Source: Ptychomitrium polyphyllum (taxonomy: Eukaryota). Taken from it: a stretch of 64,000 bases of DNA. The stretch's first letter is position 1. Each line of letters opens with the position of its first letter. Made by a program: the position numbers and the translations under genes. The DNA lies in the NCBI GenBank assembly GCA_973851085.1, contig OZ316776.1, forward strand, positions 8,308,001 through 8,372,000, written 5' to 3'. The notes beneath the pieces were generated by a model. That model worked only from the letters and a program-made list of their open reading frames with translations. It was not told the origin of the DNA and ran no database searches. Positions 29,721-54,148 of the stretch are shown piece after piece.

Positions 29721-30457
29721 ATGGCGCCAGAGAGGGCAGAAGTGGAGGTGAAGTTGGGAGTGCCGGTGGAGCAAATCTGGAGTGCGGTGAAGAAGGTGGA
29801 ACTGCTCATGCCCAAGGTTCTGCCCGACGTCTTCGTCACTTGCGATTTGGATGGCGAGAGTGGACCTGGCTCCGTCCGCGTCTACCGTTGCGGTCCTGGT
29901 ACGTCATATCTGATCTTGTAGACGTTGGATCTTGTTGTGTGCATGTATGAAAGTTTTTATTTGTGTTAGGTCATTTGTTAACTACTGGGTTTCTTCATCT
30001 AGGTGTTGAGTAGGTTGTATGAGTTTGTTGTGTGCCGGGCGTGTCTGAGATCTACGATCGCTTTTGTGTGATGATTTTCAAGAATGTTTTGTGTACGTCA
30101 AGTGGATTTCAGGTTCTAGGAGGATTTAGGGTTTAGCAACTAGGTGATTAGTCTGTTCGTAATGGTTTGGCAGCAATACAAGAAGGTTTTGTAATACGGG
30201 AACGCGTTGATGAAATCGACGACGAGGCACATTCAATGAGCTACACTGTGACAGAAGGCGATCCCCGGTATAAGTCGATGAGGGCAACCATAAGGTATTT
30301 CCCGAGCGAGGACGGCGCCACCTCAACTGCAGTGTTCAAGGCTGAGTATGACATCGATGATTCTGAGGAGGGGTTTTCAGACGAAATCACTGAAATGATT
30401 TCATTGATGCAGACAAGCTTGTGTGAGTATCTTCTCGCTAATCCTGCCTTTGAGTAG
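29721..30457 (+). CDS. Bet v1/PR-10/MLP-like (SRPBCC fold) protein; exons 29721-29898, 30174-30457
   Basis: LMPKVLPD, Gly-rich loop DGESGPGSVR, ERVDEIDDEAHSMSYTVTEGD, C-terminal EYLLANP; single phase-1 intron as in PR-10 genes. Confidence 0.88.
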
Positions 30458-32445: not shown

Positions 32446-32826
32446 ATGGCAGGCCCTGGTGAGGATTTCGATCACCTCTTCAAGGTCCTCTTGATAGGAA
32501 ATTCTGGTGTCGGGAAGAGCAGTCTCCTGCTGCGGTTTACGGCCGGGAAGTTCGATGACCTATCACCGACAATTGGAGTGGATTTCAAGGTCAAGATGCT
32601 AACTGTACATGGGATTGCATTTGCGAGGCAGCACGGGTGCTTGTTTCTTGAAGCAAGTGCGAAGACGAGCATCAACGTGCAACGCTGCTTCGAAGAGCTC
32701 GTGCACAAGATTATAGACACGCCCAGTTTGACAGCCGACACGGCTCAAGTGAGATCGAATCTCTTGAGACCTGACAAGGCATCGGACCAAGGCTCTTTTA
32801 CACCAGGTGGCCTGTGCAGCTGTTGA
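32446..32826 (+). pseudogene. RabC/Rab18-type small GTPase with in-frame internal deletion (pseudogene or truncated variant)
   Basis: G1 IGNSGVGKS, G2 PTIGVDF, G5 EASAK and C-terminal CSC are present; G3 WDTAGQE and G4 NKxD are absent; junction near 32605-32610. Confidence 0.8.
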
Positions 32827-37029: not shown

Positions 37030-40000
37030 ATGGACAGGTATAGGGACAGGTCGAAGTGGTGCAATCTTCGTGAATCTGAATTGATGGGATTGGCAGCGAT
37101 GTACTTTGCATTGCTACTGATGTTGTCGTGGGCTTTGGTTGTGGATTCTATGACGCTTGAGGAATTCGCTATTAAGGAGAAGAACGTGCGCCGGTTAGCC
37201 GACGACGCGCTTCGATCGGCTCAGGATACAGAGGAATGCGGTAAGAATGCGCTCCACATCTTGTTGGAAAAGATGACAGGGTTCGGTCTGCATAGGATCT
37301 GTATCTGGTTTACCAAACGGGATTGGTTGTGTAGGGCTTTCGCTGTGCGTTGACAATTGCTCCCGACATGCCTGCTCAGCGATTCACAACGACAATTTCT
37401 TGTGTGCCAATACGTTCAGACCCGTCGCGGATTGCGATAGGCTTAATCCGAACAAAACATGCATGCAATTGCAGCTCAACTTCGGCAAGAATGGCTTCGT
37501 ACGGTAAGCCGAACGAACATACTTCAGCGTTAGCTATCTAATGATTTGTCTAGTTTTTCTTGCGGTGAGAGGGGTGACATTCCTGACGTTTCATAACTCC
37601 AACCTAAATTTGTGAGAGAAAACTCCGTATTGTAGAATTCCGTCATCGTTTCGCAACTACTCGAACGAAAATCTGAGGCCGGAAATCAAACGAGCAATCT
37701 GCTCGCAGTCGAATCTTCAGTTCTCGGCGAACAGCAGAATCAACCTCACATTCTGGAACTACTTCGGCTCAGCAGAAGGTGTTTGGCGAAGCTATCCTGG
37801 ACGCGTAAGCTCCAATCCTCTTGAAACATTCGGATACTCGGTGCGCAATTCATGGAGCTGCCAATCGTGAACATTTTATGCCCGATAAGTGTTAATCATT
37901 TTAGCAGTTTTTGGGGTATAATCTAAGCTGTGGTTCTATCTAAATGAATGGAACTACTAGGTAGCCGAGCCTGACCAAGGCTGCGTCACATTCGATCCTC
38001 GCAAACGACCTTGGCACATCGATGCAACGGCGGTTGTGAAGGACCTGGTGGTGCTTCTCGACACCGGACACGCAAAAACCGACACTTTCGACTTGGCAGT
38101 GAAATCTGTTTTGGAGCTTTTCGATACATTTCGGGTCGACGATTCTGTCAATGTTGTGACGTTTGATTCGACAACTGCAGCTCTAATGCAACCACAATCT
38201 GTAAGACTGTTTTGGCTCAGTAACTCAGCGAGTCAGCGCTGCATCTCCTTTGAGGTGGTTACACCGCTACAATTGTAGATATTCAATTTTGAAATTTTGG
38301 GTTTGTATCCAAGCCTATGCCCATTTTTTACCTTTCCTTTCTTCTCTGTACTTGATATGGATCATCATGCAGTTGCCTGTAACCGTGAATAACAGCAACG
38401 ATCTGCGCACGAACTTCAATATATCCAAATTGAAGAATAGCGCCAATGGCTTCTCGAACCTCGCTCAAGGATTCGACACAGCAAGAGCAACGCTCAGTCC
38501 TGCGAGCACACTGAAGGTGAGTATGTGTTGTTTCCTTCTTTAAGACCAATCCGCCATAATTTTCTTTTGCCTCTTCAAAGTCTCTATGGTTCGGAATTAA
38601 CACTTCCACTGCTCCCTGACAGATGTTTCTCGTATTCACTGACGGCCAGTTCTCCAAGAATCCCGCTTTCGACATAGATGTAACCCTCCAGCGTACGCTT
38701 GCGAATCTCAATGCGAACAACGTGATCATCTTCTTTTTCAGCATTGGTCCGTGCGAACAAGACAACCCTCCTGATCCCCTCACAAACCTTCGCAACATTT
38801 CATGTCAAATGAACAGCTCCGTGACGTAAATTACCAAAGAAGATGCGTTCTGGAATCCACTCTGGGCCATTCGACCGTACTTCGATTACCAAGCCAAATT
38901 GCGATTCAAGCAGGATGTCACATTCTGGAGCAATCCCTACATCGACTTTGATGGTCTGGGCGAGGTTTCCACTGTCACTTACCCAGGTATGCCGCTTATC
39001 ATCCTCAAAAGCTAAAATCCTAAATCTGAAGATCTCTATTATAAATGCACGACAGAAGGGATTGATATTGACCACACCGGAGGTCCTTTCTGTGCACAGT
39101 ATTCGCGGACGGCATCTTGTATGGAGTTGCAGGCATTGACGTGTTTGTAAACGAAAGCGACTACATCGTCATCCAGCAGAAAGCTGCGAATCCGAATGTT
39201 CGAGCAATCCCATTAAAGTGTGAAAAAGTAAACGTGAGTAGTAAATTACAGCTCTAGCCCAGATGCTCGTTACAACGCCCTGTGTTTCAGATTTTTGGGA
39301 AGGATGGAAGAGGGCTCTAATATTTGAGAATTTTTTTTCCACGTTGTGTGTGGTTGCAAAGGCGGTTGACATGAGGTTGATCGATGTTCTTCGTTATCTG
39401 CAGGTTAATCTTAGCCAATGCACGAAACCTGTAGACCCAACCCTAAAACCACTCTGTGAACAAGACGTGTATGTCAACGAGAAACCGGCGGACGTGTATG
39501 AGAAGCTGCTGTGCTGTGACACATGCGCTATTGTAAATCCCAATGGGCGAAACCTTCTTCCAATATATTTGTCCGTGGTATTTACTAGCGCTTTTGCCGT
39601 GGTTCTGATGATTGTCATCTGTGTCCTGGCTTCCAAGTACAGAGCTGCTCAGATGTATGTTCGAGAGATTCAAGAAGGTATCGTTCCATTTCTATACTTA
39701 CTGCTCACAACTGCAATTTCTGTGTTGCAAGTGTGTCCGCGTTCACATCTTTGTCGTTATTTCTGGTTACATGAATTACATACGTCATGTAAATGTTGGA
39801 GGCACGTATGTATTCATGTTCTGCTGGTGGTTTCAATTTTCAGATTTTGCGAAGGCATCTATATCAACCAACCTGTTCACGTACAAGGAGTTGAAAAGAG
39901 CGACTCGTAATTTTCACAATGACAACAAGCTGGGCGAGGGTGGATTTGGCGAAGTTTTTCTGGTAAGCACAAGGGAGGAACTCTCTTTTGTAAATCACGG

Positions 40001-41533
40001 AAGTTCATGTTCTACGGCTTTTCTAGGTTAATCGCACTGATATAGATTGATGGATGCTTTGATTGATTCCACAGCTTAACCCGTTGGTTTGGACTTGAGC
40101 AGGGAAAGATAAGCGATGGTTCACAAGTGGCAGTGAAGAAGCTCTCTGATGACTCCAAGCAAGGGAAGCCCCAATTTTTAGCAGAGGTGATGATCATTAG
40201 CAAGGTGCAGCATAGGAACCTTGTGAAGTTGTGGGGCTGCTGCGTTGAGGGGCAGCACAGACTGCTCGTGTACGAATATCTAGAGAAAAGAAGTCTTCGT
40301 GAAACCATACTAGGTAATTTTTCACCGTTGCATCCACTGAAATCACAAAGATTGTTAGTTGGATTGAAAGCTAGAGATTCAGTTCAATGTTTCTTCAACT
40401 TCTTCATATACTAGACTCTAAAAACCAGAATATTACATTGCAGGGACTCCGGAGGAAATCCTTCATATAGACTGGCCAACTCGGTTTGACATTGCAGTAG
40501 GAACTGCTCGAGGTCTTGCATACTTGCACGACGAAATCGCTCCTCGTATTATTCACAGGGACATCAAAGCCAGCAACATCCTTCTCGATGCTCACCTCGA
40601 AGCCAAAATCTCTGACTTCGGACTCGCGAAGCTCTGCCCAGATGAACAAACCCATTTGACCACAGCCATTGCAGGCACTCTGTAAGCGCTTCTAACTGCA
40701 CTTGGTCATATTCTACTTTCAATTATCATAGAGACTGTAGTCAACTTGGAAGCAATTCTATTCTTTTAGTCTGTTGTTAGTCTTGTGTCATTTCAGGCAT
40801 GGCACTAAATGCAATAGTATGTCACTGAAATTGATTCACAGAGGTTACATGGCACCCGAAATCACACGAGGGCAGCTCACAGAGAAAGTGGACGTGTTCA
40901 GCTATGGCGTCCTCTTGATGGAAATTGTGACTGGGAGAATCACAATGAGCGTTACCAATTATGGAACTCCATTCTGCCTTATTGACGAGGTGAGTCCACA
41001 AATATGTCTGTTGTTAACAACTCGTATTTAAAGGTGTCATTACGTTTCACTAAGTTTCCTGGTCATCATCAATCAGTATGAAATATGAATTTCCATTGTG
41101 TGTGCAGATAAGGGATCTATACAGGGAGGCTCACAAGACAGGCGAGGAGGACTATCTACTCCTACTTGTGGACCGAAACCTTCACAACTTGTTCCTGAAA
41201 GAAGAAGTAATAAGGGTGCTGAAGATCGCACTACTATGCGCAAATGATAACCCAGCCTCTCGCCCTTCAATCACGCAAGTGGTGCACATGCTTTTAGGTA
41301 CTCAGACTATTCCGGAGCATGTGTTGAAATACCTGCTGCATCAGGATTTGCAGTCGTCCCCGACTTTATACGATTTGGAAGTGTCGGATGACAATAATTA
41401 TTCCGGTATCTTGCCTGCCAATGCTGGACGCGAGCTTTCTCATTCCTCCGGCACTCCTGCAGGCACCACGAATACAAGTGGACTAGACAGGAGTTTATCC
41501 CTTGCCAATGTTGCTAGTTCCGAGGGAAGATAG
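37030..41533 (+). pseudogene. dCache/VWA-ectodomain receptor-like kinase, copy 1 (13 exons), with an in-frame TAA at 38827-38829
   Basis: Signal peptide; [35 protein letters not shown]...FTDG, WSNPYID, GVAGIDV; TM helix; kinase [26 protein letters not shown]; pseudogene status depends on one base. Confidence 0.8.
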
Positions 41534-42242
41534 TGTTAATTTGCTCCACCTACTGTTTATGTACATTATATAATCTTAGGTTTCATTCTTCAGTACTAGT
41601 GTTGTTTTTTTCTCTAAAACCGAGTATAGTATTTGATCATTTGGGTTTGCTTAAAAAATGTTATCTGCTGCATTGCAAGAACAGGTGAAGCAGCCCCGGA
41701 GTACCGAGGAACAAGTGGACAAAGCAAGCGAACTAGTACTGCATCCTGGATGGATTTTAGTTTCTGTTGGGCTGTCAACACTCATTTACACTTTATGTAC
41801 AATGGCAGTGAGTTATTGGTTGAGTCAGTTCAAAAGGCTTGTCAACATGATCTGCCGTGAGTGTGACCGAATGTCGCTTGCAGAGCAGTCCAATGATTTC
41901 ATCACTTGAAGGTACAGCAGAATGAGGACGTCCAGACTGCATGTCAGCCCTGCATCTGAGCAGCTGCAGCAACAGTGTCACTCTGTGAGCTTTGATCTGC
42001 CGCCTCTCATTGTGTCAATGCTTGGTTGTCTCCAGCTCGTACCTGGCGTCTGTGCATATTAATTGGTTGTCATTGCCGCGTGCAGTGACCAGAGACACTC
42101 ATTCAGAGCTTCAATGTGCACAGAAGATCGAATTTCAGACAATCTTCCACATATAGATAAGCAGGCAAAGTGCCCAGACTCTGCAAAGAGCTGAATGAGT
42201 CCAGAAGAAACATGTTTTCACCTTCTCCTGGGAATGAGCAAA

Positions 42243-42314
42243 AGGTCCCGGCGAGATTTGAACTCGCGTTACTGGATTCAGAGTCCAATGTCCTAACCGC
42301 TAGACTACGGGACC
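42243..42314 (-). tRNA. tRNA-Gln (CTG)
   Basis: Reverse complement GGTCCCGTAGTCTAGCGGTTAGGACATTGGACTCTGAATCCAGTAACGCGAGTTCAAATCTCGCCGGGACC folds as a cloverleaf; T run follows. Confidence 0.96.
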
Positions 42315-43342
42315 AGATGCTTCAGAAGACTTATCAACGGTCCTAACAGCTCCACGTCCGAAGGGCTTCAGGATTCTGTATTATAATGCACGTGACGTAG
42401 ATGTAAACAATCTATTTTCCACTTCAAATTCTGGACATCGCTTTCATTCGTTGATTAACAAACTCCTTTTAAATGCATTATGAAACTTGATTAGAAGCAA
42501 AAGATAGCATGGAATAAAAGGCAATGGCAACAACATTATTGATAGGCTGTTTCTTTGCAAGCTCCACTCATGAAGCATTGCTATTGTAGCAAAAATGCTC
42601 CTTATTTTTTAGCAACTATTTTTTCTTCATCATTTCTTTTGCTTATTAATTTACCATGTAAAATTAAGGTTGCAACAATGATTCTTTGGGAGTATTAACA
42701 TGTTACACTAACTCGCGTCAAGTTAGACCCTTCCAAAATAACAAATAAGTTGCTTGGATTTAGCCACAGCATCATAAACATCAAACTTCTAAGAAAAAAC
42801 TAAAGTAAATACATGTACAAACTAGCTACATACTACTTCTGGGATGGACGAACACAGGTACATATGAGATGATTCTGGTTCGTAACACTGCTGCAGCATT
42901 TACCATGCTAATGTTGTCCATTGTTTTCAAGACAACTGCCTAATCATGTAATCGGTAACCCCAGAGTATCACCTAAATATAACTTGAAAAAAATGGACGT
43001 CGTGAACGCCCTGAGCTTCATGTGGAACATTAACTGTCGACTCTCTTTTCCTCATTCTCAAGACGCACTAATCTTTCTCCATCGTCCTTCTACTACCTAC
43101 CCGAGTAACATCCGGATACAAAACCAGTAACCCAAAGCATAGTCGCAGCATCGCACGAGTATCGCATAGATATCATTCAAAAAGGGGATGCAGGGTCGCG
43201 CACTTGTGGCAAAGATTGTTTGATTAGGTCGTGGCCTTAGATTGCGCAGAATGAGCAACGCAGAGCCCAGACACAATTGAAGAAGAAAGCGAGAGACCGA
43301 AAAAGCTCTGCAAAGACGCCGCTGAAGAGCACGGACAGACAC

Positions 43343-43370
43343 AGAGAGAGAGAAAGAGAGAGAGCGAGAG
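43343..43370. repeat. GA-rich microsatellite upstream of receptor kinase copy 2
   Basis: agagagagagaaagagagagagcgagag. Confidence 0.75.
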
Positions 43371-44039
43371 GATTGTTCTCGCAAGCACATCCGCTCGCTC
43401 CATCGCTGCTCCTGTCCCTCGGCGATGGACGTGGATATGAGAGCGCAGAGCTTGGCAGCGATAACAGCCTCATCATGTGACGAAAGCTGGAGCGCCGTCA
43501 CGGCGGCCAGCTAGATCGCTTCGCCGTTGCGTACGCTGTGATTCACTTTTCCAAGTTTATTCGCGCCGCCGCGGGGCTGCCTTTCTTTAGCAGATCCATT
43601 CCACGCTCACCTTTGTCGTTCATACAGAACCTACCGTGTCATTGTTGCGCTTTCCCTTGACAGGCAGTCTTGTAGCTGTAGCATACCTAGGAGTGCCGAG
43701 TTGTCGGGACGTCCATGATGAATGCGCGAAGTCGGTGGCAGTGGATGAATTGTTGATTAGTTGCAGGAAGTGCGGAGAGATGGTTGTATACTGTAGCTTG
43801 TGGAGAGGAGCGAGCGCTGATGATTTTGTTGCACGCGCTTGCGCGAGAGAGAGAGCGGAGGTGTTGTTTCGTGCGGTTTCTTGATGATTTACAGGAAGTG
43901 ACAGCGCGAGAAACAGGGGAGGAAGTAAGGATAGGTTTTTTGTTGATGAGTGCGTTAAGGCGCGTTATCAGTGCTGATCGTGCTTCGGAGGAGCGGGGAG
44001 AAAGAGTTTTAGTTTGTTGATTGCTTGTTGATGTTATTG

Positions 44040-47000
44040 ATGGAGAAGCAGAAGTGGAGTCTGGTGTTGCAGTTGTTTTTGCTGCTGATTTCATGCATAG
44101 GAGATGACGCGGTGGCGGTTGATTCGTCGCGGGGAGTGGAAGAGTATTTAGCGGACAAGGAGAATAAAGTGCGGCTTCTTGCCAGTGACGCCCTTCGTTT
44201 AGCTCTTGATAGAGAAGAATGCGGTACTGGCTATCTACTGGAAGAGTGTTTTTTTTTGGTCCTCTTCAGTCGTCTCTATGGCATTAGTCTGGCTTTTATG
44301 TTTTAAGGAGACTGGTGGATTGGACTTGATCTCCTAGCTGCGGGGAGGCGCTGTGGTTATTCAGCTTTCTAGTGCACCGGAAATATATTTTCGTATCTAC
44401 GTTGATCTCATCGGAGATGAAGCGATCGTTAGTTCTACTAGAGGTTGATTTCTGAATGCTTTTTGTGTGTTGCAAAATTTCAGGTCTATCGCACTGCGCG
44501 CTTCGCTGCGCCAGGCATGCGTGTTCCCCGACGGCCAATGACAATTTTACGTGCGTTGCGGCTCTAGGACCAGTTTCAGATTGTAACAGTTCTTGCGTGG
44601 GAATTAAATTAGACTTCGGAGGAAATGGATTTGTGAGGTACGGGAGCCTATAAAATTTTCATACCCTAGAATTAAGTTTCTGGTCACTAGGCTACCATCA
44701 CTTCCACATGATGAGAGTGGTTTCTAGAGGAAACTCTAGTTTCTGTTCATATCCTTTGAATATCTTTCATGAGAGCATTGCCCTTTGGCTGCAGACTCCC
44801 GCCGTTTTTCAGAAACTTTTCAAATTCGAATTTGAGTCCGGAGATTAAGCGATCCATCTGTGCGTATTCGAGTCTTCAATTTTCTGCAAGCGGTAGTAAT
44901 GATGATCGCTTGCTCCAGAATATTGCGCTCGGAACCGCAGAGGGTGTCTCTCGAGCTTATCCGGGCCGAGTAAGACTCTCCAGCTCTTTATTTGCAACGT
45001 TTTAAAGGAGTGCGTGAATGTTAACTTCAATGTGGACGTTTATTACTTAACCTGCGCTGGTTCTGTATTCGCAGGCTGCGAATCCGGACGGGGCCTGCAT
45101 AAATTTTGATCCCCGCAAACAACCGGGGTGAGTATTTGGAAGAAACTCCCGATTATATTTCTTTAAGTAACCATAACTGTAAGAATGTTGGTTGTATCTT
45201 CGTGACAGCTATTTTCTTGCGATGTAGGTACATTTTGTCAATATCTGTTGTGAAAGATCTCGTAGTGCTGCTCGATACTGGACAGCAAGATAATTCAACT
45301 TTCAAAGTTGCAAAGAACATTGTTACAGAGCTTTTCGACACTTTTACTACCAGCGATTTTGTAAATGTGGTTTCATTTGACTCCACGCGTGCAACTCTAT
45401 TGCAACCAACCTCGGTACTTTTCTCTCAGCTCAGCATGCTGCTACCAGTCGTTTTACTCAATCGATGCAGCGAACCTCTAAATATTTCAACTCTAAGCTA
45501 AATTTGTTAGTACAATGTGACAGGGCAGTGCTTCAGTTATGCTTACCTGACGCCTCCAATTTGCAGGTTCTTGCAAGAAGCAATGCAGACCTACATTTTT
45601 CATTTGGTATACCCTCCTTAATAAACAACCCAAATGGCTTTTCGAATCTCACTCAGGGGTTTCAGAGAGCGATGACCACCTTCAATTCAACAAGTAAACT
45701 TAAAGTACTTCTTCAAACCCCTTCATACATCTCTTCGTGCAGATATGCTGTATATAACTTAGATTGCTTGTTTACTGTGGTCCGTCCAATGGTGCTATAT
45801 TCATATTTATAAGACGATCAAATGGATTTTCAATTTACCGTAAGCAAATTAGGCATCTGCAGGTCATCTGCTTGTATTTCATTCGTTAGATGCTCATTTG
45901 AGTTTCTAGAGGTTGTGTTGAGATTGATTCTTTGCTCTAATCACTGGGTCTGTTTGGTTTGTTAGATCATTGTGGTGATTACCGACGGCTATTTCTCCAC
46001 AGCTGGAAATCTCTCCACTACAGCACTTCAACAAACAGTGTCGCTTCTGAACTCGGAGAGCGTCGTGGTTTTCTTTTTTAGCCTCGGTACCGGTGATGGA
46101 AACAACCCTGCTAGTCCACTTATAGAGCTAAGGAAATTCTCGTGTCGGCTGAACAGCTCTGTGATTTACGTTCGTACCGGGGATGCGATTCGAAATCCAC
46201 TTTGGGCTATTCGCCCTTACTTTGACTACCAGGCTACAATGCGATTTAAGGAAAACGTTACATTTTGGACGGATGTTTATGCGGACGGCAATGGTCAGGG
46301 CAATGTGTCTACCGTGAGTTATCCTGGTACGTGATTTGTGTCGTGGTCACCTAGATCATGGTTCTTCCCTACACTAAGCTATATATGAATTGCCAAAACC
46401 TCTGTACTTAGTGTCCGCTAACACTTTTGGAAGTAAATGTTGATGATCTTAACTGGGATTGAGTGCAGTTTTCAAGAACGGAACCTTGTATGGTGTAGCT
46501 TCTATTGATGTACCTGTCAACTACACGGATGGAAACATCATCAAGCTGAAATATGTGGATCCAAACGTTCCTGCGATCAGATTGACCTGTCAAATGCAAC
46601 AGGCAAGGTTATTTTTATACGACTCAACTGTGCATTACGACATGCCTTTTTGTTCTGGATTATCCATGCGAGAGTCTTGACTAGAATCTTCAATGAATCT
46701 TGACATGTTGTATTCTGAATTGGGGCATTGCAACTTCGAAGCTAAAAAGGCTACTTATTTGAATGAAAATCTGCAGTAGGCGTATTATTTCTGCGAGTTT
46801 TGCTCTAGTATTCCAGACATATCTTTGTATTGCTTTGTTATTTTCTTCTTTCCAATATAAATTTCAGAATGTATTGCTCACACAAGTCTATGCCCCATCT
46901 CCACCTCAGGTCAATCTCACCCAGTGCACCAAGCTTGTGGATCCAGACTTACGACCTCTTTGTGAACAGAGCATATATATTGGCGAGCCTCCTGCATCGT

Positions 47001-49106
47001 CGTTTAAAAAAACTCTTTGCTGCGATTCTTGTGCTTTTTTAAGCACAAAGACAAAGGCCTTTCTTGCCAAGAAGGCAAATCGCCTCCGTTTGGGTTTGGG
47101 AGCAGTTGGGTTATTTGTCCTCCTTCTCTGCGTAGTGGCAATTCTAGCATACAAGTGTGTTGCTGCTCGATCGCCGGTTCGAATATTGAAAGAAGGTAAA
47201 GCTTTGAACACCCTGCTTGGGTAGATCTTTCTACCAGCACCTGCTCTTTTCAGATGCCGTTTGACGTTTAGGGGATGTAAGTACGACTCCACCCTCATCA
47301 TTGCTAACCTCGAAATGTATACTTTGTGGACAGGTTTTGCAAAAGCATCCTTATCGACCTATTTGTACACGTACAAGGAACTTAAAGCTGCAACTCGCAA
47401 TTTTCGTGAAGACAATAAGCTCGGAGAGGGTGGGATTGGAGAAGTTTATTTGGTAAGTCTTAACAATATTATCAAACTTGTCGTCAGAGAACAACTTATA
47501 TTGAAGTAGAGCAAAAAGATGCAACTTGTTAGTGAAAGAGTGTGGATGATGATAATAGTCCACGAGTTTCTTCTACTCGAGTTTCTTATAAGTTAAAGAC
47601 ATGGTTGATTGGACAGGGGCGAAACAAAGATGGTTCTCAAGTGGCCGTGAAAAAGCTCACGAAAAGTTCGAAGCAAGGAAAGCGTGAGTTTCTTGCAGAT
47701 GTTGTTAATCTTAGTAAGGTGCAGCACAAGAATCTTGTCAAATTACGCGGATTCTGTGTAGAGAGAAAGCATAGGCTCCTCGTCTACGAGTACCTGGAGA
47801 AGAAGAGCCTTCGTCAAACACTTCTTGGTAATCTTCGATCTCTTAGTCTTGATATTGTGGAAAGTTGCAACAGCATGGGTAGAATTCGTTGTTATGAAAT
47901 AGGAGTGCTGAGACTAATTGCTTGTATGTTGGTGATATGCAGGTAGGGCAGACGACTCAGAACACGTTGATTGGTTAACACGTTTTAAAATTGCCATTGA
48001 TACTGCTCGAGGTTTGCAACATCTACACAATGAAATCCAGCCTCAAATTATACACGGAGACATTAAAGCTAGCAACGTTCTGCTAGATTCTAACCTCAAT
48101 GCCAAGATATCTGATTTTGGACTCGTCAAGCTGTGTCCTGGTGACAAGACTAATTTTACTACAAATCTCGCAGGCACTATGTAAGTACTCACTGTCGCAT
48201 GTAAATGGAACTGTGAGATAAATATGAGTTTGTCTTGTTTAATTCATAAGAATGTACATGTGTATTGTAGGAGCATCGAGGCTGTGAAAACTAGCTGCAA
48301 CATCGAAATGCATCATACTATAAAACAGTTCACATTCTTTTATATTAGTTCACTCAAGATTGTCTTAGCAAGTACACTTTACTTGTCTGGCTTTCTTGTG
48401 GTCTTGACTGTAGGGGCTACATGGCGCCAGAATTTATCATGTGTGGTCAGCTGACAGAAAAGGTTGACGTATTCAGCTATGGTGTCCTTTTGATGGAAAT
48501 TGTGACCGGCAAGATTACCACAAGTCGCAGTCGCTCTGGAACGATGTACTTCCTTCTAGATGAGGTTAGCATGCCAACTTAATTTTGTTATTTATAAAGT
48601 CACAAATGTTAAATTACCTTAATAATTACCTTTATTATTGCCTTCATGTAGGCAATGATCTGGATTAAGAAATTACTAGCGCAGAGTGCAACTTTATATT
48701 CTGATTAAGAGCTTGTCGTTCGCAGATAAGAGGCGCATATCTAAGATCATGTGAAGCAAACGACGAAGAACTCCTGTTTGGCCTTGTGGACGCAAGATTG
48801 GTTGGTAGATTCGGAAGAGAAGAAGTTGTGAGGGTATTGAAGGTAGCACTCCTGTGCACAACGGATAGCCCGACAATCCGGCCAACTATCTCTCAAGTGA
48901 TTCTTATGCTCTCAGGGAGTCAAGAAATTCCCGATCATCTCCTGCAAGACTTCGGAACGAGAGGTGACCATTCCCGACGCATGTCAATGCAATCATCTCC
49001 CGATTTATCGAACTTACAATGGTGGGAGGACGAAAGTTTAGATCCGCCTCTTCTTGTTGAACGTCCACCAAATCGAACAGGATCTGTATCAGTACCAACG
49101 AATTAA
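44040..49106 (+). CDS. dCache/VWA-ectodomain receptor-like kinase, copy 2 (14 exons), non-RD kinase
   Basis: Signal peptide [52 protein letters not shown]...[41 protein letters not shown]; kinase [26 protein letters not shown]; start could be 44031. Confidence 0.88.
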
Positions 49107-51575
49107 ATGGTATTTCTCAAAATGGAAAAACAGGAGACGAGCAGCTGCAGAGTCGACCAGCAAACTTGAAGAGATAAAAGTTCCACCTTGCAGATTATAG
49201 TGCATGTAATTGCAGTAGGTGTCTCTGGATGCAGAATTTATAACTCATTGTAGAATGATAATCTCCAGCAGGTGGAGATATTATTCCCTGGTGTGAAATA
49301 GTTAGAGTTTAGGATTGAGGATTATAGCGGACATTAATGGATAATAGACACGATGCTCGTCTTCAAATCTGTACTATAGAACAAAGGGCACTGAACTAGT
49401 GCATATTGTGATTTGTGAAAAATTGAAACGTTGAAACACTAATCAAACCAGTGCTTGTTATGCATGAATTTGGAGGTGTAATTCCTAATTTCCAAAACAC
49501 ATAGGTCACGATTATTCAGACAATGCAATGCTTATTGTTGGTCATATTGGTCATATTGTGTTAACACGTACACTTGTAATTCTAAATACTGAGGTTTAGG
49601 TTGTGATTTAAGCAAGTGGGTTTGTTTACCTTGAGTTGGTTGTTTAGATAGTGTGCATGTTTTAGTGTAGGTAATGCTTGAAGTTAAATGTTTCACTTTG
49701 AGTAGCAAAAAATTATAGGTGATTGTATACTAATTAAACTTTATGTATGAATAAGTTAGTTTAACAAATTTGTTTCAAAAATTATTTTCTTTGGTAATTG
49801 AGTCTTCACTTCAAAAAGTAAGAATCAATAATAAATGATAGTGAATGTATGAAGGTATGAACAATTTTTAATGAAATAAGGTTTTACTAATGAAATTGTA
49901 TTTACAAGTGATGGAATTTTTTTTGTGGGAATCAATGAAGAATATTATGTAGTATACAAAGGCTATACAAAGTTGATTTATGAAGATGGCTTTTACAATT
50001 GATATTATTAAGGTGCTATAAATTACTATGCACCAAAAATTCTATATTGATACATAATAATTAGTGATTATTTTTATTTAATTATCTTCTCTTTAGAAAA
50101 AAAAAAGATGTGTGGTAATAAGTAGGTGAAACATGATACACTAGAATGTCCTATATAGAATGTATTTATATTAGAGAAATCATCACATATATAAAAGCAC
50201 TTTGACAATATGCATATGGATAAAGGATTAAATATAAATAACTTACGAATATGAAGCAAATAACATTAATGTGAAGGTGGAGTAAAGATTTGATCCTTTT
50301 CAAAAATCCTCATTAAAGTAACGAATTATTGTCAATTTCTACAAAGTAATCTTATAATCTTGAAGAAAACTTGATAGTGCTTTCTATGAACTGTGTAGTT
50401 CTCATTCCCACTCTGTGTGCACTCTCCAGCATGTCAACCGCTTCTAGATGAGCATCGATAGTCTAGAACTCCTTAAATTGTCCTCGAGAATAGGTCTCCT
50501 GCTGCAGTGTGGCAAGAAATCTGCACAGTTGTATAGTACGTAACTGTGTCAGCAGTAGGGTGCCACTGATACTGACTGGCCCTGCCGTGGTGACTAATCA
50601 TACCTTTACCACAAAGTTAGAAGAGGTAAACTAAAAAAATTCACCGAGAGAACTTCAGGCAGCCATCCGATGACCGAGGATGCAAGGTGGAGGGTAGCAA
50701 ATCAAGTGGCAGAGTGGAGTGAGGCGGTGGCGCCACGTCTGGCGACACTTGGTGTTGGGTGCATGACACTGCAGCGGCGACGAAGATCCTTCGACTGCAA
50801 GCACGACAGCATCGCACCGGAATCCCATGCAATTGCCCAAGCTTGGTAACCTGGCACCAACTCTGCCCCTCTCTCCACCCTGGCGTTGCATGCTTACGTC
50901 GCGCGTCATTTGAGCCTTTGGAGTACCCTCGGTGGAATTAGTATGAATGCTTGATGTGCTTGCGTTAGTTGTAGCGTGCAAACCTCATCGCATTCACAAG
51001 AGAAGAGTAAATGGTTTCCTGAGCAAAGCATGACATGGGTCCCTTTTGGTGAAGCACAGAACTTGGACTGAGTGGGGATTGGATTGAGACTGAATTGGTT
51101 TGTCGATTGGTTTTTGGCTCACAACGCGTGATAAGGTAAGTGGAAGGGTCATGGGAAATGATTGATATGATGCTGTCATGTCTGTGCAGGGTTGTGAGTT
51201 CCGTTCTTATTCAGTGTGTGTTACCTGGTGGCTTGCTCTCTGAGGATGAACTGGAACGTGCTTTTGAATACAGTTTGTAGCTTTTATTTTAATATGTGGA
51301 AGGGGGAGCATTTTAGGTCAACATTGTGAAGATATGTCGAAATTTTATTTCGAGTTTTGATGCTTGCATGATCGCATCACACGGAATATCTGCACATCCT
51401 TAAGCAGTTTTGAGAGTGGAATGGGCCAGAGAATCCTCGACGAGGAGACATTCTGCGTTGGCAATTGACTGAACGCTTGCTTCGGGAAACGGCTGCAGGT
51501 GGGGGCATTAGATTATTGCACATCGATCTTTGTTTCAAGGCAAGCGACGGAGAGAGAAGTTTAGTGTTGGTGAAT

Positions 51576-54148
51576 ATGGGGAGTCAGGAGGCCCAGCGCG
51601 TGAAGGCGAGCTTAGAAAACCAAGCCAAGGAAGCGCAGGACTATGTCGGTGGTGGACAAGACAAGAGCTCTGTCATTGCTGCACAGGTCGTTGTTCCTTC
51701 GAAGGTTGGCGAGGAAGCAAACGAGGTAATGAATGTGTCACAGAACTCTGACGGTTAGAATTGGTTCGAAGTCTTTGTTCTGGAATTCGACATCGTGAAT
51801 CCAATGCTGAATTCACAGGAAATTCAAATTGCTAGGGAGTTACCGCGGTTTAGGGGAAGTCTAGTTGAGTTTGAACGGCACTTAATTGCGATTGAAGTTT
51901 CGTCCAGTCCGGTTGAAACGCGAATTTGTGTTACTGCAGGAACTTAGGTTTTTAAAAAATGGAAACTCCAAGCTCAGGGTGCAGTTGAAAGACTGTGAGG
52001 AAGCGTTTCAACTAGCAAACCGTGAGACTGAGAAGTCGAACAAAGTGGCTAGAGACGGGAAGCAGAAAATCCACGAGCTTGAGAAGCAGAATGAGGATTT
52101 GAAGAAGAACGTGCATGCTGCTGGTGCTAAGGCAGCTGAACTAGAGCTGAAATTGAAGGATGCCGAGGACCAGTTCAAAGATGCGCAGAGTGCTATCAAG
52201 GTGCTGGAGGCTAAGCTGAAGAGTGATGAGAAGAGCAAAGCTGCTCTGAACGCCGATCTTGATCGGTTGAAAGCAACTCTCCACGATCGGGAATTGAAAC
52301 TGAGGAGCTTGGACAAAGAGATCACCGAAAAAGAAGAATCGTTGAAACACAAGCTGGTCGAAAAGAACATCAAAGTAGAGGAGCTTTCCTCTAAGGTGAT
52401 TCAAATCCTTGCAAATTGAGCATTTCGTGGGTAAATGTATCATAAGTGCTTTATATTTAGTTTTGTTTTTTCACTGTAAATAATTCGATAACTTTCTCCT
52501 ATTGACATTTTCGGTCGCAGGCCGAGCATTTCGAGTCTCGGGCAATCCCGGCGGAGAAGAAAGTCTCGGAGCTCGACTCTAAGGCCAGAGACTTGTCAGC
52601 TGCAGCGACTGGCGTAGAAGCTGATCTTTCTCACGAACGAGAAGTGAACAAACACAAAGAGGCCTCAATAGCTGAGTATCAGGAAGAGCTTCATAATGCC
52701 GTCTCTCGAGCCAATCGCATGGGAGCAGCTCTAAGGACCGAAGAGGAGAAGATGGCCGCTCTGAAGGCAGAAGCAGAAGAGCAGAGGACGAAACTTGAAG
52801 AGCGGGCGGTTGCGGCGGAGGCAGAAGCAGAGAAGCTCCGGACGAAATCTGCTGAAGACTCCGCCCACGCGCGTGTGTTGGCGGAGAGAATTGGCGCTCT
52901 GGAGAATATGATCACCGCGACCAAGGATCACAGTATGGAAACGAAAAAGAAAATGGACGCGAAATTGAAAGAAGAAGCCAAGGAAGTAAGCTCACAGGCT
53001 GAGGAACGAAGCATCGCCATCACGGAAGCTAATGAGATGAAGACCGAGAAGGGTGGCTTGTTATCCACTATCGCTGACTTAAAGTCCAAAATGTTCGGTG
53101 TGGCCTCCAAAGTTGAAGAGAAAGACGCCGAAGCGAAAGCGAAGGCCGAGGAAGCCGAGAACGCAAAAGCCGAAGCTTCAAAGCTTGAGACAGCAGTGAA
53201 GTCGGTTTCAGAACAAGCCGTACAACAGGAAGAAACGAAAGAGAATCTGGAGTCGGAGCTGGAAGGGGTGAAAGAGAAAGCCAACGAAGCAGACAGCGCC
53301 ACTACGGCGTTGAAGCAAAAAGACTCCAAGCTGGGAGAAATAAACCACGGCTTGCAATCCTCCGGCCAACGGTTGGCTGATCTCGGTGAGAAGCTGTCAA
53401 CATTGCGGAGAGAGCGTGATGAAGCTGTTGCCTCCGCCGACTCCAACGCCACCAGGTTTGCTCCACCCTCTTCACCTTATCGTTTTCTACGCAACTTTGC
53501 ACATGATGATCAACCTGCGAGTGCACCCAATTCACCTGATTTAATGTCTACATATGGAACCTCAACAGGTATACAACATAGAATTTCACTTGCCTATATT
53601 TTGATCTTCACACGTCTCAGTATCATTTAGGTGTAAGTCGAGAAGTGGATGAGGTGAACTCCTTTCCACTCGTTGTGACCCTTGGGATGCTTCGGACGTT
53701 TGTAGTGTCGTAATCTTTGTGCATTTCTCCAGACGTCCGCTTGAGTATCATCTGTACATCACATCAGTGCCCACCACAATAACCTCTAGGCCGCAGTTGG
53801 GTAAGTGTATGTAGCGTACTCCTTTGGGATACATGTGATGGACGTTTAGAAAGCGCCTGTTTTGATGGTGACAGGGTGGACGAGTTGGTGACGAGGGTTG
53901 CGGATTTGGAGAGTAAGTTACGTGACGCAGAGGAGCACAACTCCAGCTTGGAGGATCAGCTGCAGGAGCTTGGTGTGAAGGTCGAGAAGCATGCGTCCGC
54001 GATTAAGGGCCGTGAAGAGTATGCTCTTCACAAGGCAGAGAAGGCACGCCAATTGCAAGATGAAGCGGTGGATATGGAAAAGAAGAACATGAGAGAGGGA
54101 GAGGAACAGTTTGTAGAGACGTCCACAACTCTGAGCAGCAATGCCTGA
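51576..54148 (+). CDS. Long coiled-coil protein of unknown function; exons ~51576-51725, 51940-52395, 52521-53455, 53875-54148
   Basis: E/K/A/L-rich heptad-like ORFs joined in frame by GT-AG sites; no globular motif recognised. Confidence 0.75.

Follow-up and report, generated by a model that had tools for sequence, protein, structure and literature searches.

In the moss Ptychomitrium polyphyllum, two tandem genes on the forward strand, here termed copy 1 and copy 2, each encode a receptor-like kinase with a dCache_1 ectodomain interrupted by a VWA domain. Both lie in a window of 64,000 nucleotides, the whole stretch of DNA analysed (GenBank assembly GCA_973851085.1, contig OZ316776.1, positions 8,308,001 to 8,372,000). 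Copy 2 is an intact, moss-conserved, alpha2delta-like receptor kinase duplicate in which the residues of the amino-acid pocket are largely replaced. Its sequence gives a modest preference to the view that it works without a small-molecule ligand and would act as a partner or tuner, or a brake, of those family receptors that have kept both the pocket and a kinase with Arg before the catalytic Asp (RD kinase).

The carboxyl half of the amino-acid motif, Y-x4-R-x-W in dCache_1AA domains, reads F-x4-Q-x-G in copy 2, which therefore falls outside that pattern. The residues F-DPRK-Q-P-G span a 100-bp GT-AG intron (45128-45227), and in the amino half Y-A-D stands at 46278 and SIDV at 46501, with the terminal Asp (D173/D235) kept. 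An earlier note, made from the letters of this DNA, had reported these residues together with F-DPRK-R-P-W (37991-38014), P-Y-I-D (38935) and GIDV (39132) of copy 1, and all of them were found at these places. A family profile aligned both motif halves to alpha2delta-1 (E 1e-78) and the N-terminal half also to PctA (E 2e-10), so that the motif register holds. The glycine depends on the splice joining 45127 to 45228, a junction upheld by the Physcomitrium orthologue, for which intron-free contigs give QPGY (P0004, a 2,790-bp contig encoding 888 aa, and P0071-P0073). Alternative splicing as the source of the Trp or Gly seen at this site among orthologues was rejected, because P0047, a genomic fragment matching a Trp-bearing orthologue, has the same donor site as copy 2; Trp versus Gly is thus a single-base difference and not a splice choice. 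With the splice bases fixed, a one-step change in the first base of this split codon reaches only Trp, Gly or Arg. The intron itself lacks a counterpart in copy 1 and is seemingly present in a third paralogue group (P0058, judged by eye), a pattern that suggests intron loss in the copy 1 lineage.

The copy 2 orthologues comprise Ceratodon KC19_2G134200, Physcomitrium LOC112287631 (XP_024386595) and two transcript-sized contigs. The five members of the copy 2 clade formed one branch with support of 100 in both the ectodomain and the kinase trees, nested among moss paralogues and plant outgroups bearing the motif Arg and Trp. The nesting indicates that the loss of these residues is derived and, since the clade includes the Physcomitrium and Ceratodon orthologues, that the loss of Arg predates the split of these two lineages. 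Physcomitrium and Ceratodon diverged more than 200 million years ago. Of 136 ungapped distant eukaryotic relatives (142 rows, 6 of them gapped), 134 have both Arg and Trp, in a set biased by its retrieval with an intact-motif query. Scans of metagenomes yielded nothing in a first round and, in a second, one 1.7-kb fragment of a pocket-intact paralogue. More distant dCache/VWA kinases with Arg and Trp intact occur in Physcomitrium and Ceratodon and, among liverworts, in Riccia (P0098, P0105, P0114).

The replacements in the copy 2 clade concentrate in the pocket. The 13 residues lining the gabapentin site were taken from Chen et al. (bioRxiv 10.1101/2022.12.05.519047), and 12 of them were mapped by alignment, W225 lying in an unaligned loop; alpha2delta-1 numbering is used hereafter. 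Ten pocket sites are invariant in eight pocket-intact paralogues, and eight of the ten change in at least one of the five clade members, against 33 of the 157 invariant sites elsewhere in the ectodomain (Fisher p 2e-4; seven of nine with the W207 site excluded, p 7e-4), p values that are optimistic because the sequences are related. Four substitutions are fixed in all five members, namely R243Q, D456N, S219A and, neighbouring the pocket, G491S, and new residues became fixed at 2 of the 10 pocket sites versus 2 of the 157 others (p 0.018). W207, Y209 and F455 are likewise lost in all five, with replacements that vary by species, so that neither aromatic pocket residue of the first strand is left in the clade. 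At W245, three members have Gly and two Trp, a distribution that needs two to three independent changes. The amino side varies as well. Among 12 clade sequences, position 452 is Tyr in nine, Ser in two and His in one, and position 454 is Asp in seven and Ser in five; Y452 and D454 are kept together in 6 of the 13 sequences from the clade and in all 28 from the paralogues. The 13 include exon fragments, two of the 13 are identical over the tested stretch, and one fragment with a deletion was excluded from the per-site counts; isoforms and near-duplicates were excluded from the 28, and all of those excluded read Y-x-D. The statement of the earlier note that copy 2 keeps its amine-binding residues is therefore correct for this copy and does not extend to its clade. 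T463 never changes, and D493 is retained in five of the six sequences where it is seen (Asn in the sixth), both being present in all five full-length members. In one exon, identity at four pocket sites versus the neighbouring sequence was 0.56 versus 0.88 within the clade and 0.90 versus 0.77 among the paralogues.

An open frame and a normal ectodomain rate led to the rejection of a general decay of copy 2. Lineage-specific ectodomain changes in the copy 2 versus the copy 1 clade numbered 52 versus 51 and 53 versus 57, and ectodomain identity to Ceratodon was 83.5% for copy 2 versus 81.7% for copy 1. The structure of the Physcomitrium copy 2 orthologue predicted from a 124-sequence alignment (predicted local distance difference test, pLDDT, 93; predicted template modelling score 0.92) replaced a poor model from 15 sequences (pLDDT 59, notably in the N-terminal half). 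It shows a dCache_1 fold with the VWA domain, also recognised by Pfam, inserted between the motif halves; its best structural match was alpha2delta-1 (Z 29.1, 377 aligned residues, root mean square deviation 4.2; Foldseek E 4e-17), and CACHD1 also matched (Z 24.5). A profile of the single exon at the VWA tail gave no match below E 0.18 among solved structures, and predicting the two Physcomitrium ectodomains as a complex, without alignments, gave a score of 0.00, which is neutral on pairing. The MIDAS (metal ion-dependent adhesion site) of the VWA domain is degenerate in both copies, as the earlier note had stated, and was rejected as a copy-specific trait: all 14 moss members share D-x-G-x-x, which makes the degeneracy a family trait that does not distinguish the copies. 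By pattern match, DxSxS was present in 90 of 110 distant relatives.

By its sequence, the copy 2 kinase is non-RD, lacking the Arg before the catalytic Asp. HGD replaces HRD in all five clade members, and every paralogue having the motif reads HRD. The clade kinases keep the Lys, the catalytic Asp and Asn and the DFG; their Gly-loop Phe is changed to Ile or Leu in all five and the alphaC Glu to Asp in four of five, and the copy 2 kinase is possibly weakened. The Riccia dCache/VWA kinase is likewise non-RD (HSD). The C-terminal tail of copy 2 (48950-49106) is strongly conserved in the clade, including Physcomitrium, unlike the tails of the paralogues, and is a candidate docking or phosphorylation region.

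Copy 1 belongs to a branch predicted to sense amino acids. Its carboxyl half counts as dCache_1AA-type, the Phe variant being accepted in Dataset S3 of Gumerov et al. (2022, PMC8915833), and the copy 1 orthologues of Ceratodon (KC19_2G134300) and Physcomitrium (LOC112287630, XP_024386590; assigned by synteny) carry the full Y-x4-R-x-W-Y, Y, D motif. The earlier note had called copy 1 intact but for a conservative Tyr-to-Phe change, a description at odds with two features of this plant. An in-frame TAA lies upstream of the motif's amino half, the transmembrane helix and the kinase, so that P-Y-I-D and GIDV are left untranslated, and the motif Trp is followed by His where all 13 moss homologues and all 136 ungapped distant relatives have Tyr or Phe. 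The proposed contrast between the copies thus stands for the copy 1 orthologues of other mosses and does not hold here, given the stop codon. The stop replaces a Tyr invariant across eight compared paralogues, and the codon after it is altered too, two adjacent bases differing from relatives; contigs from two other, related organisms read TAT GTT at the site. The TAA was seen in one contig from the same organism, with a depth of 55, like single-copy neighbours, and 0 differences over 3,684 bases, which may be the window's own source. In the second run of that sample no contig covers the stop, an absence that carries no weight. Copy 1 is here likely to be a young null allele, seen in one sample. 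That the stop comes from misassembly or is circumvented, leaving copy 1 functional in this plant, appears improbable: such a reading would suit the stop being the sole lesion among 930 codons, the canonical splice sites throughout, a kinase 93.7% identical to that of Ceratodon and the possible identity of the sole stop-bearing contig with the window's source, but the depth and uniformity of that contig oppose it. Moreover, the shortest in-frame GT/GC-AG bypass among those of 45 bases or more would remove 16 conserved codons, and the others at least as many, and copy 1 carries private changes at invariant sites (W-Y to W-H, a kinase Arg to Trp, and others). A rate test for wider decay of copy 1 was mixed by outgroup (33 versus 21, p 0.13; 35 versus 11, p 0.0005). 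The same sample has, on other contig(s), a further dCache/VWA kinase that is paralogous to copy 1, at about 80% identity (aligned to 37333-40583).

Taken together, a loss specific to the pocket, remaining contacts that vary by lineage and a conserved fold are best fitted by a receptor that has stopped reading small ligands and would work through contacts with proteins, and among the options raised in the earlier note ligand-independent action is the one that these observations suit best. After the duplication, R243 would have been neutralised to Gln and D456 to Asn once, in the clade ancestor, with loss of the cage aromatics. Other ligand contacts would then have drifted in each lineage separately, while selection maintained the fold and a surface for protein contacts, and the kinase would have lost the Arg by which phosphorylation of the activation loop is coupled to activity. 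Several points weigh against this reading. Copy 2 stays intact beside a broken copy 1, so that copy 1 cannot be its sole needed partner, and the sample does contain a further paralogue. The copy 1 stop is known from one contig, which may be the window's source, and the decay test is mixed. The alignment behind the 124-sequence model consists mostly of pocket-intact relatives, and the model informs the overall fold rather than the pocket geometry. The amino-side variation comes largely from exon-sized contig fragments assigned by best BLAST score, some of which may be pseudogenes or extra paralogues. Finally, the four substitutions fixed in all five members and the T463 and D493 kept in the full-length ones show constancy, and the enrichment of fixed new residues in the pocket also fits selection for a new ligand.

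These last points lead to the alternative that retains most weight, although it is clearly the less probable one: the pocket may have been reshaped, loss of the Arg and four bulky aromatics giving a cavity that is neutral and roomier but can still hold a free amino group. The ligand would then be bigger (a peptide N-terminus, an amino-acid amide or an amino sugar) and might be a signal of microbes or of damage, passed on through a non-RD kinase as in immune receptors. Both the constancy of R243Q, D456N, G491S, S219A, T463 and D493 and the pocket enrichment of the fixed changes are expected on this alternative, and HGD throughout the clade recalls the enrichment of the non-RD class among immune receptors, 12 of 15 kinases that signal in immunity being of this class (PMC8872720). 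However, the non-RD status is a correlation only, and a single specific ligand should constrain Y452, D454, W245 and the first strand; the joint retention of Y452 and D454 in fewer than half of the clade sequences, the alternation of W245 between Trp and Gly and a first strand that differs per species therefore count against it. In its fullest form, in which a roomy, neutral site for some larger ligand bearing an amine and the non-RD kinase would make copy 2 a bryophyte immune-type Cache receptor in tandem with an amino-acid-sensing sister, the idea seems rather unlikely.

Two further proposals keep a small ligand, and each is very doubtful. The earlier note had suggested that copy 2 may bind amines, and it would then sense amines or polyamines by the route of the bacterial dCache_1AM domains. 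The retention of Y452, D454 and D493 in copy 2 agrees with this, as does the Gln at the R126 position of PacA, a position that is not constrained in the amine sensors (bioRxiv 10.1101/2023.04.06.535858). But in those sensors cation-pi contacts are needed, the aromatic equivalent to W128 is conserved, and F188A and W155A reduce affinity 373-fold and 175-fold (same source); the purine-sensor motif keeps that Trp too (PMC11245519). Copy 2 has Gly at the W128/F188 position, as do two of the four other orthologues, the remaining two having Trp, and it is without W207, Y209 and F455. Amine binding is thus unlikely, since amine sensors need an aromatic that copy 2 has lost, and with the amino-side Tyr and Asp varying in the clade the proposal is poorly supported. 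Amino-acid binding that is weak or altered in selectivity, with copy 2 as a low-affinity receptor, has as little to recommend it: R126A lowers and D173A abolishes binding in PctA, copy 2 keeps that Asp, and two of the five orthologues keep the Trp, but R241A of alpha2delta-1 abolishes gabapentinoid binding (PMC8915833), copy 2 is without the Arg, the Trp and the Tyr hydroxyl all at once, and nearly all distant relatives have both Arg and Trp. The companion claim of the earlier note, that copy 2 lost carboxylate recognition, is well supported by the Arg-to-Gln change in all five orthologues and by the 61-fold weaker binding of PctA R126A (PMC8915833).

The exon models of both copies, whose features are listed in Table 1, were built from alignments to homologues, in which Pfam VWA and kinase domains were found. 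All 12 introns of copy 1 are GT-AG, and a start at an alternative in-frame ATG, at 37030, would lengthen it by 18 residues. The best named match of a copy 2 exon was Ceratodon purpureus KC19_2G134200 (86%). The tandem order is shared by Ceratodon (134200/134300) and Physcomitrium (LOC112287630/LOC112287631), as their adjacent locus numbers show, and thus by three mosses in all. The GC donor sequence of the copy 2 GC-AG intron is read through in P0018, from another moss, and this intron may be conserved.

Table 1. Coordinates, within the 64,000-nucleotide window, of the two receptor kinase genes, their motifs and the intergenic tRNA gene
Feature	Position	Strand	Remarks
Copy 1, dCache_1/VWA/transmembrane/RD-kinase gene	37084..41533	+	13 exons, 930 codons including one premature stop
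Copy 1, first pocket strand	37751..37771	+	Trp and Tyr present (alpha2delta-1 W207 and V209 positions)
Copy 1, carboxyl half, F-x4-R-x-W-H	37991..38017	+	F-DPRK-R-P-W, then His
Copy 1, degenerate MIDAS	38060..38074	+	DTGHA
Copy 1, premature TAA	38827..38829	+	Near VWA domain end; codon 362 of 930 counted from ATG 37084
Copy 1, amino half	38935..39143	+	Y-I-D-F-D, then GIDV in following exon; downstream of stop
Copy 1, kinase HRD	40554..40562	+	RD type
tRNA-Gln(CTG)	42243..42314	-	Intergenic between copy 1 and copy 2
Copy 2, dCache_1/VWA/transmembrane/non-RD-kinase gene	44040..49106	+	14 exons, 923 aa, open frame
Copy 2, first pocket strand	44916..44936	+	Trp and Tyr lost; one-residue insertion, W207 partner Gln or Asn; Tyr to Ala
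Copy 2, carboxyl half, F-x4-Q-x-G-Y	45105..45231	+	Gly codon split by intron 45128-45227
Copy 2, degenerate MIDAS	45274..45288	+	DTGQQ
Copy 2, amino half	46275..46512	+	Y-A-D-G-N (F to G, D to N versus paralogues), then SIDV (G to S) in following exon
Copy 2, GC-AG intron	46603..46909	+	Inferred from frame and homologue alignment
Copy 2, kinase landmarks	47423..48121	+	GEGGIG Gly-loop 47423; VAVKK kept; alphaC Glu to Asp 47692; HGD 48053; DFG 48113

Other frames on the same strand flank the pair. An intronless 126-codon Rab-type small GTPase frame lies at 32446-32826 (Pfam Ras E 6e-18, matched in two stretches); its mid-domain is apparently missing, and it resembles a retrocopy with an internal deletion. 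An exon-sized frame at 30152-30457 has a weak Bet v 1/polyketide-cyclase match (E 9e-6 to 1e-4), and long coiled-coil-like frames at 51414-54148 (374 aa at 52506-53630) gave a Pfam match below threshold only.

The family and its architecture are already known. Gumerov et al. noted the dCache_1AA-VWA serine/threonine kinase architecture for streptophytes in one sentence and a figure, and plant Cache-VWA receptor kinases, which make candidate extracellular amino-acid receptors, are absent from flowering plants (PMC8915833). What appears to be new is a moss-wide, pocket-stripped, non-RD sister retained in tandem with an intact gene. In the literature searched, which mostly leaves subscription journals outside its coverage, neither this sister and its spread over mosses nor functional studies of plant Cache-VWA receptor kinases were found, and the accessible part of Gumerov et al. 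holds no mention of the copy 2-type motif loss, its moss spread or the non-RD kinase. Their Dataset S3 lists XP_024386590 and XP_024386595 under 'Single dCache_1AA group'; XP_024386595 has no row in the motif table of that dataset and occurs once across the six supplements, and its motif is F-x4-Q-x-G, so that the present analysis corrects its filing as an amino-acid-motif protein. The pair offers a test case in Physcomitrium, where LOC112287630, with a full pocket and an RD kinase, stands beside LOC112287631, with a stripped pocket and a non-RD kinase. It could show if cell-surface sensing of amino acids exists in mosses, if a sister blind to ligand serves as a brake or a co-receptor, and which role is left to an ectodomain of the alpha2delta type that has neither pocket nor MIDAS. 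The natural stop in copy 1 suggests in addition that, in one moss at least, its branch is redundant or can be dispensed with.

Among known systems, the moss kinases resemble alpha2delta-1, the human gabapentin target, and CACHD1 in that a VWA insertion splits dCache_1 and the motif register is conserved, but they have one dCache domain instead of two, add a transmembrane helix and a kinase, and lack the DxSxS MIDAS that is intact in alpha2delta-1 and -2. Within that family, alpha2delta-3 and -4 reshape the pocket at five sites other than the Arg and Trp (bioRxiv 10.1101/2022.12.05.519047). The non-RD receptor kinases XA21, FLS2 and EFR share with copy 2 the absence of Arg before the catalytic Asp and the receptor-kinase layout (PMC8872720), whereas their ectodomains are unrelated. 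The bacterial dCache_1AM sensors PctD, PacA and McpX parallel copy 2 in having arisen from an amino-acid sensor by loss of the Arg, with Gln in PacA and the terminal Asp kept; unlike copy 2, in which the aromatic cage is dismantled, they keep that cage and need it.

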